Below, one piece after another: positions 32,852 through 37,150 of a DNA stretch of 64,000 nucleotides. How positions within the stretch are numbered: position 1 is the first letter of the stretch; every line of letters starts with the position of its first letter. The position numbers were made by a program, and so were the translations under genes. Under the pieces are notes generated by a model. That model worked only from the letters and a program-made list of their open reading frames with translations. It was not told the origin of the DNA and did no database searches. This stretch comes from Ktedonospora formicarum. GTDB taxonomy: Bacteria > Chloroflexota > Ktedonobacteria > Ktedonobacterales > Ktedonobacteraceae. The stretch covers positions 3,189,721 to 3,253,720 of the forward strand of contig NZ_BNJF01000001.1 in NCBI RefSeq assembly GCF_016587355.1, given 5' to 3'.

Positions 32852-33823
32852 TTATACCACACGAACCGCAACCGCCACCTCCTCCGGTGCCACAACCGCC
32901 GCTACCACAGGAGCATGCTCCCCCCTTCCCACAGCCGCAGGAGCCACCAGAAGATTTTTTGACGCCACAGGAGCCACAGCCACCCCCTTTGATGAAGGCT
33001 CTTCATCGAGAGGAATCTGAATAGTTGCCTCGCTCTCAAGCATTACCTCAACTGAGTTCTTCGGAACATTGATCGCGACCACCTTGCCGGGACCACTGGG
33101 AGTATTGAGGATCGCGCCGATCTGAGGCATCTGTTGTTTGGCCTGGATATAGTTCTCGTTCTCATAGGAGAGGCAACACATCAGGCGGCCACAGACACCA
33201 GAGATTTTGGAGGGATTGAGAGGAAGACCCTGTTCTTTCGCCATTTTAATGGAGACAATACCAAAGTCCGTAATCCAGGAACTACAACAGAGCGTTTTGC
33301 CACAAGGACCAATTCCACCCTGGAGCTTGGCCTGATCGCGTGCTCCTATCTGGCGTAGCTCAATGCGAGTACGGAAGGTCGCGGCGAGATCACGAACTAG
33401 TCCTCGAAAATCGACGCGTTCGTCGGCGGTAAAATAGAAGGTGAGGCGGCTCCCATCAAAGGTGTATTCGGACTCGACTAGCTTCATTGGGAGTTTGTGC
33501 TGGGTGATGCGCTCGGCACAGCGAACCATTGCCTCCTTTTCCTTTTGCTTAAAGGAGAGGAGCATGCGTAGTTCATCTTCAGTGGCGAGGCGCTGAATTG
33601 GCTTCAGGGGATCGGTAAGGTCCTCTTCCACAAACTTCTTCGAAGCTATGACGACGCGTCCAGCTTCGACCCCACGCACAGTTTCGACAATAACATATTG
33701 TCCATTAGTGAAAGTTTGCCCCTGGGGATCAAAGTAGTAGATGCGTCCAGCCGGTCGAAAGCGAACGCCAACTACGACAATGGTTTTGGCTGTATCTGTT
33801 GCGGAAGTGCTTACCAGATCCAT
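32852..33823 (-). CDS. ricT: PSP1 C-terminal domain protein YaaT/RicT.
   Basis: Signature GIGPCGKTLCCSSWITDF...GVCGRLMCCLSYENENY. The C-terminal Pro/Val/Ala-rich tail is encoded by GC-rich repeats. Confidence 0.8.
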   Translation of the reverse strand: MDLVSTSATDTAKTIVVVGVRFRPAGRIYYFDPQGQTFTNGQYVIVETVRGVEAGRVVIASKKFVEEDLTDPLKPIQRLATEDELRMLLSFKQKEKEAMVRCAERITQHKLPMKLVESEYTFDGSRLTFYFTADERVDFRGLVRDLAATFRTRIELRQIGARDQAKLQGGIGPCGKTLCCSSWITDFGIVSIKMAKEQGLPLNPSKISGVCGRLMCCLSYENENYIQAKQQMPQIGAILNTPSGPGKVVAINVPKNSVEVMLESEATIQIPLDEEPSSKGVAVAPVASKNLLVAPAAVGRGEHAPVVAAVVAPEEVAVAVRVV

Positions 33824-34052: not shown

Positions 34053-34634
34053 TTACATCTCATTCGTCAAGAGGATAGCCTCGGCTACCTCACGCATGGA
34101 CTTGCGGTTATTCATGCTGGCCTTCTGGATCTTGCGGAATGCATCTTGCTCGCTGAGACCCTGCTTCTCCATGAGCAAGCCTTTGGCGCGCTCGACAATT
34201 TTACGTGTCTCAAGAGTTTCGCTCAGGGAGCGAGCTTTTTCCTCCATGGCGCGGAACTCATTGTAGCGTGCCAGGGCGACCTCAATAGCGGGTGTCACTT
34301 CGCTTTCACGGAGTGGCTTCACAATGTAGTTTACCACCCCGGCCTCCTTTGCGCGCTCGACGAGTGGCTGATCGCCAAATGCCGTAAGCAGCAACACTGG
34401 CGCAATTTTTTCTTGCGTTAATGTTTCTGCGGCAGCGATTCCATCCATGTCAGGCATGCGAATGTCCATAATAACCAGATCAGGCCTTAGCTCGCGAGCC
34501 AGGTTGACGGCGCTCAAGCCGTCGCCAGCCTCACCAATTACCAGGTAGCCCTGTTTGACCAGGACATCCTTTAGATCCATGCGTTGAATAGCTTCATCAT
34601 CAGCAATAATAATACGTGTTGGCATACGTGTCAC
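34053..34634 (-). CDS. Response regulator with an ANTAR RNA-binding antiterminator output domain (AmiR/NasR-like).
   Basis: Receiver IIIADDEAIQRMDLKDVL...DLVIMDIRMPDMDG...K, then the ANTAR helix pair ...ETRKIVERAKGLLMEKQGLSEQDAFRKIQKASMNNRKSMREVAEAIL. Confidence 0.85.
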   Translation of the reverse strand: MTRMPTRIIIADDEAIQRMDLKDVLVKQGYLVIGEAGDGLSAVNLARELRPDLVIMDIRMPDMDGIAAAETLTQEKIAPVLLLTAFGDQPLVERAKEAGVVNYIVKPLRESEVTPAIEVALARYNEFRAMEEKARSLSETLETRKIVERAKGLLMEKQGLSEQDAFRKIQKASMNNRKSMREVAEAILLTNEM

Positions 34635-34826: not shown

Positions 34827-35897
34827 CTAGGCAACCTGTACAAGCTCGTTTTCATGGAGCAAATGCGCCAGTGCCTTCGCCTCGCGAATAATACGCGTGA
34901 GTGTTTCTGGCTCGATAGACTGGCGACCATCACACAAGGCAACGCTGGGATCGCAATGTGTTTCGATAATCAATCCCTGTGCCCCGGCAGCTATGCTAGC
35001 ACGAGCCATCGTTGGTACTAGTTCGCGTCGTCCAGTGGCGTGACTGGGGTCGACGACAACTGGTAAATGCGTCATCTCCTGAAGCAGTGGCACACACGTT
35101 AGATCAAGTACATTGCGGGTCTTCGGATCATAGCTACGAATGCCGCGCTCGCAGAGAATGACATTGGGGTTTCCTGCCGCCATGATGTATTCTGCGGCGA
35201 GCAGCCACTCTTCGACCGTCGAGGAGAGACCACGTTTGAGCAAGACAGGGTGCTTCGAGGGATGCTTGCCAACCGCGCGAAGGAGTGCGTAGTTCTGGAC
35301 ATTGCGTGCGCCAATTTGAAATACATCAGCGTATTCGGCTACCATGTCAACCATCTCCGTCTCCATGACCTCGGTAACAACAGGCAGCCCGGTTTGTTCA
35401 CGGGCTTCCGCAAGCAACTTCAGACCCTCGACACCCAGCCCCTGGAACTGGTAGGGCGAGGTGCGAGGCTTGAAGGCTCCACCACGTAGTACATTGGCCC
35501 CAGCGGCTTTGACCGCGTGGGCTGTCTTGAGTAATTGTTCGCGGCTTTCAACAGCGCACGGACCCGCCATGATGACCGGAGATGCGGATGCCTCACCTAC
35601 GGTAACCGTGTCACAGGTGTGATCTGCACCTATCAGGATGCGGGTATTCGTGGTTTGGAAAGAGCGACTGACGAGCTGGTAAGGGGTTTTTAGGGGAAGG
35701 ACTTCGGCGACTGCGGGTTGCTGGAGGAGGAGTTGCTGGACCTGAGTATCAATTAACGCACCATCGAGAGCTATGACCTCACGTTCAGCGGTACGCGTAC
35801 TGGCGATGGGGGCGCGACTCTCTGTGACACGACATAAGAGTGTCATCAGGTGAGCACGTTCTTCGCTAGAAGCTTCGGGACGAATAGTGATAATCAT
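34827..35897 (-). CDS. aroG: 3-deoxy-7-phosphoheptulonate (DAHP) synthase, type I-beta, with an N-terminal ferredoxin-like/ACT regulatory domain.
   Basis: Catalytic core AGPCAVESREQ...GAFKPRTSPY.FQG...KRG...VDPSH..G matches the KDO8PS-like DAH7PS family. The ~75-aa N-terminal domain resembles the Thermotoga-type allosteric domain. The start is at the internal ATG 35897 (MIITIRPE), preceded by GAGGAAAG. Confidence 0.9.
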   Translation of the reverse strand: MIITIRPEASSEERAHLMTLLCRVTESRAPIASTRTAEREVIALDGALIDTQVQQLLLQQPAVAEVLPLKTPYQLVSRSFQTTNTRILIGADHTCDTVTVGEASASPVIMAGPCAVESREQLLKTAHAVKAAGANVLRGGAFKPRTSPYQFQGLGVEGLKLLAEAREQTGLPVVTEVMETEMVDMVAEYADVFQIGARNVQNYALLRAVGKHPSKHPVLLKRGLSSTVEEWLLAAEYIMAAGNPNVILCERGIRSYDPKTRNVLDLTCVPLLQEMTHLPVVVDPSHATGRRELVPTMARASIAAGAQGLIIETHCDPSVALCDGRQSIEPETLTRIIREAKALAHLLHENELVQVA

Positions 35898-36010
35898 GAG
35901 TTCTTTCCTCTTTCTATTGTGTGAACAACGGTTCTCCGTTTGCCTATTGCTGAGTAGAGCTCCTTCGAAAGTCAAAGCTGCTGTGGCGTTCTGACTTTCG
36001 AATAAAGAGA

Positions 36011-36041
36011 AACAAAAAAGCAGAGGAATTTTCCTCTGCTT
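36011..36041 (-). terminator. Intrinsic terminator inside the aroG leader (the attenuator terminator).
   Basis: Minus-strand RNA aagcagagga-aaat-tcctctgctt followed by UUUUUUG, about 115 nt upstream of the aroG start. Confidence 0.6.
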
Positions 36042-36088
36042 ATCCCAGCATGCTGGTGGTTTTTTTGCTCAGCCAAAGTGGCCCACCA

Positions 36089-36163
36089 TCATGCTGGGGG
36101 GCTAAACCAATAATAAAAATGCTGCATTTTCGGTTGTGCGACAAGGCATGTATCGCTGAGCAT
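36089..36163 (-). CDS. Putative attenuation leader peptide (24 aa) rich in aromatic codons.
   Basis: atg ctc agc gat aca tgc ctt gtc gca caa ccg aaa atg cag cat ttt tat tat tgg ttt agc ccc cca gca tga, giving MLSDTCLVAQPKMQHFYYWFSPPA. The stop codon lies inside a 16-bp stem. Confidence 0.45.
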   Translation of the reverse strand: MLSDTCLVAQPKMQHFYYWFSPPA

Positions 36164-36233
36164 ATGTTTTACCAACTGTGTGTATTTTGTGAGTAATATG
36201 GCTTCGATGCTCTTTACATCTAGCCTTTGATAG

Positions 36234-36263
36234 ATTATAAGCGCTGCCACGCAATAATGTCAA
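36234..36263 (-). promoter_or_regulatory. Consensus sigma-70-type promoter for the aroG leader.
   Basis: On the minus strand: TTGACA, an 18-nt spacer, then TATAAT. The predicted TSS is about 60 nt upstream of the leader ORF. Confidence 0.55.
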
Positions 36264-36313: not shown

Positions 36314-36360
36314 AAAAAGCAGAGGTTCTGGATATTTACCCAGAACCTCTGCTTTTCTGT
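36314..36360 (-). terminator. Intrinsic terminator for the upstream minus-strand operon (37992 to 36377), bidirectional in shape.
   Basis: 14-bp stem agcagaggttctgg / ccagaacctctgct flanked by A-run and T-run, 20 bp after the stop at 36377. Confidence 0.6.
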
Positions 36361-36376
36361 GATGCTAAAGGATACT

Positions 36377-37150
36377 TTAGCGCTTCTTTGAACGGCGCTG
36401 TGTGGTGCGGTACTCGCGATAGAGCGAATCTGACTCGCCACTGACACCCTGGCGGATTGTCTGCTGTGGCGCTTTGGGCGTCGCTGGCGAAGACGACGAA
36501 CGCCCTGATGTCTGTTTGCCTCTTGTCGCGGTGTTGCCGGTCAGGCTGCGTGGAATCAGGTCAAAACGAGCCAGGACAACGAGCAGAATAACCAGTGTGA
36601 CCAGGTACGTTAGCGTTGAGGTCGTCAACTTCATAGACAGACCGAAGAGATTAAAGTTCGTGACTAGGCGCTCAAGGCCCAGGTTTTTGATGGCCTGCGT
36701 CTCATAGAGGCCGGCGAAGTTCGCAACAAGCAGGTACAGCGCCATACCAATGATCCAGCGTGTCTTAAAGCCGCTGGCAGGTCTGGTACCTGGGCGAGCG
36801 TTCGCGGTTGTTTTGGGTGCGGGAGCCTTCTCTTTCTCTTCTGCGCCTTTGCCGTGGGTTGCCCGCGCCAAGCGAGCGCGCGTGGCCTCTTCTTTGCTGG
36901 TAGTCGCCTGATCCTCGCTCTTGCCAACACGTGAGAAGAAACTGCGGCGAGGTTTAGCCTCGCTTACTGGCGCTTCCGCTTCAGCGAGTGCTACAGAGCT
37001 CTCACTTTGGGTTTCACCCTCTTCTGTATCTGTTACTGTCTCTTGATCGAGCTCATCATTTTGCACTAGCGTTGGGCGGTTAGTGCGTGTGCGGCGGCGA
37101 CGACCGGAACGTCCGGTGCTAACTGTATACTCCTGGGAATCCTGACTCAT
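36377..37150 (-). CDS. Hypothetical membrane protein with a highly charged disordered N-terminus (~130 aa) and two TM helices.
   Basis: It is translationally coupled to the upstream gene (ATGA overlap at 37147-37150). TM helices WIIGMALYLLVANFAG and LTYLVTLVILLVVLARF. Confidence 0.5.
   Translation of the reverse strand: MSQDSQEYTVSTGRSGRRRRTRTNRPTLVQNDELDQETVTDTEEGETQSESSVALAEAEAPVSEAKPRRSFFSRVGKSEDQATTSKEEATRARLARATHGKGAEEKEKAPAPKTTANARPGTRPASGFKTRWIIGMALYLLVANFAGLYETQAIKNLGLERLVTNFNLFGLSMKLTTSTLTYLVTLVILLVVLARFDLIPRSLTGNTATRGKQTSGRSSSSPATPKAPQQTIRQGVSGESDSLYREYRTTQRRSKKR

Follow-up and report, generated by a model that had tools for sequence, protein, structure and literature searches.

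The 64,000-nt stretch of DNA analyzed here (the window) belongs to contig NZ_BNJF01000001.1 of Ktedonospora formicarum, a member of the Chloroflexota, and the region of interest lies on its minus strand. There, a gene for 3-deoxy-D-arabino-heptulosonate 7-phosphate (DAHP) synthase (DAHPS) is preceded by a promoter, a short open reading frame (ORF) with a run of aromatic codons, a hairpin that contains the stop codon of this ORF, and an intrinsic terminator. DAHP synthase is the carbon entry point to all three aromatic amino acids; its textbook control consists of the repressors TyrR and TrpR together with feedback inhibition. An earlier note, made by inspection of the window, had drawn attention to this arrangement, and all of the features that it described are present on the minus strand where it placed them. 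The components that bear on coding and transcription are these:

36263-36234, minus strand: sigma-70-type promoter (TTGACA at 36263-36258, 18-nt spacer, TATAAT at 36239-36234); it matches the consensus at 12/12 positions, which bears out the consensus promoter of the earlier note
36089..36163, minus strand: leader ORF of 24 codons plus UGA, encoding MLSDTCLVAQPKMQHFYYWFSPPA and ending HFYYWFSPPA-stop
36104..36118, minus strand: sensor codons UUU UAU UAU UGG UUU (F16 Y17 Y18 W19 F20), the conserved aromatic run
36011..36041, minus strand: intrinsic terminator T, AAGCAGAGGA-AAAU-UCCUCUGCUU, then UUUUGUU
34827..35910, minus strand: the regulated gene, with the Shine-Dalgarno (SD) sequence GAGGAAAG at 35910-35903 and the DAHPS coding sequence at 35897-34827 (ATG at 35897, 356 amino acids)

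The promoter is one of 7 promoter-like sites in the region, where 1.9 would be expected, and a 5' untranslated region (UTR) of 64 nt separates it from the leader ORF. The DAHPS protein matches the Pfam family DAHP_synth_1 (E = 8e-77) and is 100% identical to the K. formicarum DAHP synthase. Its residues 2-347 align with the Thermotoga maritima DAH7PS of entries 1RZM, 1VR6 and 3PG9, the last of which is the Tyr-bound form. Because this alignment runs from end to end, the enzyme is, as judged by homology, of type I-beta (the Thermotoga maritima type) with an N-terminal ferredoxin-like regulatory domain, and not the aroG-type (I-alpha) enzyme that the earlier note had taken it to be.

Does the arrangement recur in front of orthologous genes? 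A scan of genome contigs for DAHPS was dominated by generic DAHPS matches and gave about eight Chloroflexota loci, which were supplemented by protein look-ups. The contig index contained no exact match to the DAHPS protein of the window. Five loci, from Ktedonobacter (K.) racemifer, Dictyobacter kobayashii, a Chloroflexia metagenome-assembled genome (MAG), Ktedonosporobacter rubrisoli and Tengunoibacter tsumagoiensis, were located through the DAHPS protein alone (62–81% identical to that of the window); we refer to these as protein-anchored. A metagenome scan with a 24-nt pattern taken from the W-F-S-P-P-A-stop region returned a further 120 loci, and pooling the protein-anchored and metagenome loci yielded 97 distinct leader sequences. 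All five protein-anchored loci carry a promoter, a leader ORF, the stop-codon hairpin (A:A', described below) and the same terminator upstream of DAHPS. TTGACA/TATAAT-like pairs stand at the equivalent position in all of them, and their ORFs start with AUGCUCAG and end with ...[FY]YYWFSPPA-UGA. The 5' UTR, the first 10–15 codons and the spacer to the gene show no similarity among these species. Alignment of orthologous regions, the comparison that the earlier note had proposed, thus finds both the aromatic-codon ORF and the hairpins conserved across Ktedonobacteria, with covariation.

The pooled set bears the marks of a coding sequence. The frame from AUG to UGA is kept in 97/97 distinct leaders, at lengths of 20–26 codons, and each peptide contains 5–7 aromatic residues, Trp always among them. 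The N-terminal two thirds of the peptide are variable, and synonymous changes (TAT/TAC, TTT/TTC, CCC/CCT, CCA/CCG) are found among the leaders. The aromatic run is conserved as [FY][YWSC][YF]WF in all relatives, with recurrent replacement of Tyr by Phe or by Trp. Since the change from Tyr to Trp (TAT to TGG) takes two substitutions and nevertheless recurs, the constraint acts on aromatic codons and not on nucleotides; moreover, the sensor-codon stretch (36104-36118) lies outside every conserved helix. An SD-like GGA peaks at -11/-12 from the leader AUG in 61 of the 97 sequences, a spacing similar to that of the SD sequence of DAHPS itself. The Phe/Tyr/Trp run before DAHP synthase, which the earlier note had read from a single ORF of 24 codons, is therefore a property of the family. 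On this comparative evidence, the ORF is a translated regulatory leader, neither a conserved peptide nor a chance ORF.

The relationship to the downstream gene is equally regular. In the metagenome set, a DAHPS ortholog follows on the same strand in 114 of 114 testable loci, starting 25–454 nt (median, 40) past a reference point near the end of the terminator. As far as these loci can tell, the element is tied exclusively to the DAHPS gene. An independent small gene, encoding a micropeptide or a small RNA from its own promoter and terminator with DAHPS transcribed separately, would also present a complete promoter and a strong terminator, as this unit does, and attenuator-derived small RNAs with functions in trans are described elsewhere (rnTrpL, PMC7968998). 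Such a gene would not, however, be expected always to sit immediately upstream of DAHPS and in the same orientation, nor to leave the N-terminal two thirds of its peptide unconserved. Further, the distance from T to the DAHPS ATG is 25–46 nt in many relatives, too short for a promoter; because this spacer can be as short as 25–28 nt, there is no room for a separate DAHPS promoter, and in the window no promoter-like site was found between T and DAHPS. We regard this explanation as barely credible.

The RNA structure of the leader was examined by folding and by comparison. Folding of the 338-nt leader gave z = -5.9 relative to shuffled sequences. The segments that enter into the helices are, in the order of transcription:

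36155..36162, minus strand: S1, 5' strand of helix S1:L, UGCUCAGC; covers codons 2-3 and, before them, the UG of the start codon
36083..36098, minus strand: A, 5' strand of helix A:A', CCCAGCAUGAUGGUGG; includes the leader UGA (36091-36089)
36072..36082, minus strand: inner hairpin GCCA-CUU-UGGC, stacked atop A:A' and covarying
36066..36073, minus strand: L, 3' strand of S1:L, GCUGAGCA; in the 3' bulge of the A:A' hairpin
36060..36066, minus strand: A-tract of 7 A between L and A', a conserved A-rich stretch of 5–10 nt
36044..36059, minus strand: A', 3' strand of A:A', CCACCAGCAUGCUGGG

Structure statistics were computed on 88 distinct leader cores, for which the RNAalifold consensus consists of A:A', the 4-bp inner hairpin and T. 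When pairs were counted over these cores, 99.1% of cells were paired, as compared with 30–55% when the partners were slid against each other, and both sides of a pair had changed in 19 cells vs. 3.6 in shuffles. For A:A', which has 15 of 16 possible pairs in the window, the two strands are paired in 99.8% of cells, and the base-most pair covaries from U-A to C-G in 6 sequences. The inner hairpin covaries among GCCA/UGGC, GCCC/GGGC and GCUC/GAGC, with 13 cells changed on both sides. The proposal of the earlier note that A pairs with A' and that the UGA lies inside A thus stands, with covariation in relatives. The 5' half of A was preset by the metagenome search pattern, so that its invariance in that set holds by construction and only the A' side and the inner hairpin were free to vary there; the five protein-anchored loci show the same sequence for this half.

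Helix S1:L, in which the start-codon region (gctcagc) pairs with a complement in the loop of the A:A' hairpin (gctgagc), corresponds to a complementarity pointed out in the earlier note, and it proved genuine and covarying across relatives. S1 and L pair in 97.9% of cells, vs. 15–43% in slid registers; 6 sequences, all of them Met-Phe-Ser leaders with GCUGAAC, show a compensatory change from C-G to U-A, 1 sequence shows one from A-U to G-C, and several further changes produce wobble pairs. Neither S1 nor L was part of the metagenome search pattern. By these measures S1:L is the best-supported helix of the leader. The loop of A:A' contains L, and the loop that S1:L closes contains A; the helices are therefore interleaved and form a predicted pseudoknot. 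The aromatic codons end 5 nt before A.

Some short features of the same segment were also noted. The leader stop codon overlaps an AUG in GCAUGAUGG, giving rise to a mini-ORF, AUGAUGGUG (window 36092-36069, minus strand; AUG AUG GUG GGC CAC UUU GGC UGA), whose own UGA falls within L. As a second ORF reaching across T it was rejected: it ends in L in most species, and 1-nt indels alter its length (for example in L084). Given this lack of conservation in length, the mini-ORF probably arises incidentally from the sequence of the helix. Read-through of the leader UGA was likewise set aside, for the frame that follows it is open through T in K. formicarum and closes at once in D. kobayashii. Finally, GAGCAAAAAA, which comprises the end of L (GAGC) and the A-tract (36060-36070, minus strand), is complementary to the terminator tail UUUUUUGUUU (36011-36019, minus strand), the conserved G included. 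Such a helix would be possible only in read-through transcripts, where it would enclose A' and T. We rejected it as a conserved closing helix, the change of the U-tract G to A being compensated in 1 of about 10 cases.

Terminator T is of the canonical intrinsic kind that the earlier note had recognized, a 10-bp stem with a U-tract that is conserved across Ktedonobacteria. The hairpin itself (36041-36018) has a 4-nt loop, is followed by UUUUUUGUU, and has a folding energy of about -15.7 kcal/mol. Its stem, GCAGAGG/CCUCUGC, is invariant in 87–88 of the 88 leaders; its loop varies in length from 5 to 10 nt. The distance from the leader stop (36089) to the 5' arm of T (36041) is about 47–48 nt. 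Between the foot of A:A' and that of T, the spacer measures 0 nt in 39 of the 88 sequences, 1 nt in 42 and 2 nt in 7. The bases of this spacer vary.

The arms of T are met once more in the window. The terminator of the upstream gene (gene 36377-37150), at 36315-36356 on the minus strand, has the same arms, AAAGCAGAGG...CCUCUGCUUUU, plus a UUCUGG/CCAGAA extension. The 9-mer AAGCAGAGG occurs in the 64 kb only at these two terminators, with 4 matches vs. 0.7 expected. K. racemifer has an unrelated terminator at the position of the upstream-gene terminator, which in K. formicarum may be a local duplication of T. The idea that T is a dispersed repeat, or the motif of a regulon, was rejected: across the 1.2 Mb of loci retrieved, T was found only at DAHPS leaders and at this one neighboring terminator of the window.

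More distant Chloroflexota possess diverged versions of the leader. A Thermomicrobiaceae locus (L014, 1-130) encodes ...WYYYFTPPA... and has an 11-bp A:A' that abuts AAGCAGAGGC...GCCUCUGUUUUUUGUUUG. Two Limnocylindrales-like loci (L015, 2190-2370, and L030, 1680-1850) encode MSHYFYFRCPA-stop and MTRTFYFRCPA-stop, respectively, with a GCCCGGC:GCCGGGC helix and an identical T, and in a Thermomicrobiales locus (L016, 2300-2470; ...WFYFGFFYASPA..., FFYASPA), A' abuts a CCGAGG/CCUCGG terminator. Common to all four is a helix over the Pro-Ala codons that adjoins the terminator. In L014, L015 and L030, the T stem GCAGAGG/CCUCUG(C) and the UUUUUUGUUUG tail are kept while the rest of the leader has diverged. 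The L015 leader precedes DAHPS-aroA-aroE.

These relatives help to assess another explanation for the conserved end of the peptide, namely that it is an arrest peptide of the TnaC/SpeFL kind: the nascent FYYWFSPPA would sense free aromatic amino acids in the exit tunnel and hold the ribosome on the UGA, so that A is covered and termination is favored. In Ktedonobacteria, neither the last nine residues of the peptide nor the UGA varies, Pro-Pro-Ala-stop could terminate slowly, and the predicted sign, termination when amino acids are abundant, equals that expected if the charging of tRNAs is sensed. However, the conservation of SPPA-stop is already explained, because its codons form helix strand A and covary with A'. 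In addition, the ORF runs 10 codons beyond TPPA in L014 and also continues beyond ASPA in L016, and the aromatic positions tolerate replacement of Tyr by Trp, Ser, Cys or Phe, a better fit to the sensing of codons than to a motif that contacts the exit tunnel. Sensors of the TnaC/SpeFL kind act through Rho access or through ribosome arrest at the stop codon; the terminator in the window is intrinsic and not of the Rho type. We judge an arrest peptide to be very improbable.

Taken together, the conserved frame, the covarying helices and the constant position lead us to conclude, on comparative grounds, that the promoter-ORF-helix-terminator element is a real regulatory leader. How might ribosome position be communicated to T? 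For six species, minimum-free-energy folds were computed under the constraint of a ribosome occupying the first aromatic codon, Tyr, Trp, the final Phe or the stop codon. A:A' was intact when the ribosome covered F16-Y18; its lowest pairs were lost with the ribosome on W19, and the helix was lost with the ribosome on F20 or the UGA. A natural variant adds to this picture. The leaders of L090 and L131, which are identical, have lost T. The strand in its place, AGCACACUGGUGG, pairs with A', and the U-tract after it is the same as in the other leaders. A' thus serves this variant as the 5' arm of a terminator in which the U-tract pairs with the A-tract. Either A:A' or the terminator can form, but not both, in the manner of a classical three-segment attenuator; of the two forms, S1:L can coexist with the terminator only. 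This arrangement therefore points to A:A' as the read-through state. From this one natural variant and from physiology, we infer the sign of regulation: a ribosome on the stop codon, or S1:L in the absence of translation, would favor termination.

We thus think it probable that the element is a ribosome-mediated transcription attenuator that senses the charging of tRNA-Phe, tRNA-Tyr and tRNA-Trp and sets the level of read-through into DAHPS. Transcription would start from the consensus promoter, and the pioneer ribosome would translate the 24-codon leader. In replete cells, the ribosome would reach the UGA and, because this codon lies inside strand A, A' would stay single-stranded. S1 would then pair with L and thereby bar renewed initiation at the leader. 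Between the terminating ribosome and T there would remain about 35 nt of flexible, unpaired RNA; T would form freely, and transcription would end about 150 nt past the leader AUG. In cells starved of any one of the three amino acids, the ribosome would stall on F16-F20, 0–8 nt upstream of A, which would be free to pair with A'. The resulting helix of about 20 bp would have the stalled ribosome at its base and would be set against the 5' arm of T across the 0–2-nt spacer. Being rigid and placed at the very point where the base of the T stem has to enter the RNA exit channel, this helix might hinder completion of the stem, and RNA polymerase would run on into DAHPS. S1:L would probably act as an anti-antiterminator that favors termination when the leader is untranslated.

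The least certain step of this scheme is the steric coupling between A:A' and T, which we consider possible but doubtful. Taken with all of its parts (A:A' forming only when a ribosome stalls, abutting T and blocking it by steric hindrance or ribosome proximity; the interleaved S1:L resetting the switch; and conservation of the whole across several Chloroflexota classes), the scheme is tentative, and it is unlikely to be right in every particular. Several points weigh against it. T was kept in every ribosome-constrained fold of all six species. Folding of transcripts truncated ahead of the 3' arm of T revealed no structure that would stably hold the 5' arm, and the best duplexes of the T arms with conserved leader segments had energies of -6 to -8 kcal/mol, vs. 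about -15 to -16 kcal/mol for T. The direction of regulation is drawn from a single, rare variant lineage together with what physiology would lead one to expect, and the proposed steric or proximity block of T is not known to have a precedent. A purely steric model does not account for the invariance of the T stem across Chloroflexota classes, which hints at a sequence-specific partner, and the invariance of the 5' half of A in the metagenome set was fixed by the search pattern.

The same folds dispose of a classical antiterminator as the main mechanism, T being present in all of them and the competing duplexes too weak. Among the conserved helices, none shares a strand with T, the variant of L090 and L131 being the exception; the leader lacks the strand shared by terminator and antiterminator that defines attenuators of the trp, pheA and his type. 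The earlier note had likened the layout to trp/pheA-type attenuation. That likeness stands as regards the promoter, leader ORF, stop-codon hairpin and terminator, all conserved; it fails as regards alternative hairpins that overlap the terminator. Folding with and without a ribosome footprint, which the note had recommended, did not bring out mutually exclusive terminator and antiterminator structures, for T always formed; the note had itself named such an outcome as evidence against its reading.

A weak and partly topological switch could supply the missing competitor. According to this alternative, A:A' traps L, leaving S1 (GCUCAGC) to pair with the 5' arm of T (GCAGAGG), whereas a ribosome on A permits S1:L and leaves T free. 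Nested folds of cut transcripts do pair the start-codon region with the T 5' arm in 3 of 6 species when A:A' is present, and they switch to S1:L when the ribosome is on the stop codon. S1 is similar to the 3' arm of T, as L is to the 5' arm; the duplex of S1 with the T 5' arm has an energy of -6.0 kcal/mol. The observed variants of S1 are all changes from C to U that keep both pairings, and the alternative would account for the sequence invariance of both T and S1. Against these points, the duplex has 5 bp with an internal A-A mismatch, and T (about -15 kcal/mol) displaces it in all full-length folds. L is transcribed earlier than the T 5' arm, so that S1:L should form first, and a queued second ribosome would cover S1 during the stall. 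Because T is invariant, there is no covariation for this pairing, and relatives of the L014/L015 type retain T with no evident S1-like partner. We consider such a switch unlikely.

The invariant stem of T could also reflect a trans-acting factor, either an aromatic-sensing RNA-binding protein or the neighboring ANTAR regulator, with the leader peptide as a second input or a timing device. A plain terminator does not usually combine a stem that stays constant across 88 leaders with a loop of variable length, and the stem is common to other Chloroflexota classes whose leaders have otherwise diverged. An ANTAR-domain response regulator is encoded directly downstream of DAHPS, both in the window and in other Ktedonobacteria. 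The leader, however, contains no paired hexaloop hairpins of the ANTAR target type; L015, which has an identical T, has aroA and aroE after DAHPS and not an ANTAR gene; no PADLOC or Rfam-type signature and no Rfam match was found; and a mechanism that relied on a protein alone would leave the conserved aromatic codons and their frame unexplained. A trans-acting factor thus seems decidedly unlikely, and control by ANTAR in particular was rejected as improbable, the leader hairpins consisting of an irregular stem of about 20 bp plus T, whose A-rich loops are 4–9 nt long.

We turn now to the relationship of the attenuator proposed above to known systems. None of the Rfam leader families (Trp_leader, Phe_leader, His_leader, Thr_leader, Leu_leader and others) was found in the region of the window at E values up to 10, nor in 18 related loci at gathering score. 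Because Rfam has no family for it, the leader is a candidate new RNA family for annotation. In the searchable literature, we found no such leader for Ktedonobacteria or Chloroflexota. The earlier note had called a leader of this kind before a DAHP synthase unusual and not seen described; to regard it as undescribed is too strong, because the aroR leader peptide (Phe-Tyr-Phe) of Corynebacterium glutamicum attenuates the DAHPS gene aroF (Neshat et al. 2014, as cited in PMC11802643; the attenuator was predicted in PMC4046766). For the genes of Phe and Tyr, an early survey of Actinobacteria (PMC1262725) had not detected any RNA elements. According to PMC11802643, aroR-aroF read-through rises with ribosome stalling under Phe limitation, and the supply of Tyr has no effect. 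The C. glutamicum system has the same functional layout, an aromatic-codon leader before DAHPS, but the analogy is one of design only: it belongs to a different phylum, no Trp codon is reported for aroR, whereas the 5–7 aromatic codons of the pooled leaders always include Trp, and the gene controlled is aroF as compared with a Thermotoga-type I-beta DAHPS. The Chloroflexota family, the mix of codons for three amino acids, the start-codon pseudoknot and the non-overlapping, abutting terminator appear to be unreported.

The attenuators of Escherichia coli (trpL-trpE, pheL-pheA, pheST, hisL) likewise have a short translated leader with clustered codons for the product and an intrinsic terminator before the structural gene. 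In them, the stop and sensor codons are so placed that ribosome position picks the helix, and a helix sequesters the start once the first round of translation is over; both are also predicted for the Chloroflexota leader. In contrast to these, the Chloroflexota T shares no strand with the alternative helix, which instead abuts it at 0–2 nt; the “1:2-like” S1:L is interleaved with A:A' as a pseudoknot and shares no bases with it; and codons for Phe, Tyr and Trp stand together in a single leader, before the gene for the pathway's common first step, which it would control. In attenuators of the pyrBI/pyrE type, a nearby ribosome blocks the terminator hairpin with no antiterminator helix involved; the leader ORF of pyrBI extends into the terminator, with the pausing of RNA polymerase at low UTP as the signal. 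If the steric proposal is right, the Chloroflexota leader would resemble pyrBI in that the nearness of a ribosome, not a competing helix, prevents termination. It would differ in that its ORF stops about 47–48 nt before T, so that the ribosome would be near T only via A:A', and in that the signal would be ribosome stalling.

If the attenuator reading holds, the whole class Ktedonobacteria, with relatives in other Chloroflexota classes, would control the DAHPS step through one leader that reads Phe, Tyr and Trp. The family would be a natural test case for the regulation of a terminator without an overlapping antiterminator; it offers about 100 natural variants, a fixed spacing of 0–2 nt, a covarying start-codon pseudoknot and one variant that has reverted to the classical design.

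Other phyla were surveyed at 74 loci for type I-beta DAHPS. In 17 of these, a short ORF that begins with ATG and has at least 5 aromatic residues in a stretch of 7 precedes the gene; the antisense and intragenic controls for the 74 loci each gave 0. A terminator-like hairpin follows the aromatic-rich ORF in 12 of the 17. The groups concerned are Acidobacteriota (Terriglobia/Bryobacteraceae), Geobacter/Geomonas, Smithella, Calditrichota, Verrucomicrobiia and Oscillibacter (named loci: L026, L031, L035, L036, L039, L042, L047, L049, L057, L058, L059, L066, L070, L075 and L076), and examples of the peptides are MKTNRFYIAFSFYFWFGFYFRPSARVVV-stop and MFGTDASSFWYFTYRYWGFAPSR-stop. Like the Chloroflexota family, these leaders combine a short ORF having 5–6 aromatic residues per 7-residue window with a terminator and DAHPS, but their sequences are unrelated to the Chloroflexota leader. 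Those of Geobacter (L066), Smithella (L039) and an acidobacterium (L026) show, in constrained folds, an antiterminator of the usual kind, overlapping with the terminator at its 5' arm; the Chloroflexota family does not. The survey suggests that an aromatic leader before DAHPS has arisen repeatedly.

In many other Chloroflexota (L004, L005, L013, L017, L029, L043, L048 and L060), the I-beta DAHPS directly follows a gene whose product ends in ...HVYLR.A..LRPD, which we take, as a candidate assignment, to resemble AroH-type chorismate mutase. In L005 and L029, an aromatic-rich leader ORF lies about 550–590 nt upstream of DAHPS, where it would precede this gene.

One further structure lies in the spacer between T and DAHPS, outside the conserved element:

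35964..36002, minus strand: species-specific perfect hairpin of 11 bp

The earlier note had likened this hairpin to a dispersed repeat family. Its perfect 11 bp were borne out, but the likeness was not: it occurs once in the window, where about 20 other long intergenic hairpins have unrelated sequences, and it was not found in the orthologous leaders or spacers (25–454 nt, mutually unrelated in sequence). Being unique in the window and absent from orthologs, this K. formicarum-specific hairpin therefore belongs to no sequence family, and membership in a repeat family was ruled out. Downstream of DAHPS lie the genes for the ANTAR-domain response regulator (34053-34634, minus strand) and for a PSP1-domain protein (32852-33823, minus strand); the order DAHPS-ANTAR regulator-PSP1 (named loci: L081 and L082) recurs in K. 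rubrisoli, in T. tsumagoiensis and on a further Ktedonobacteria contig.

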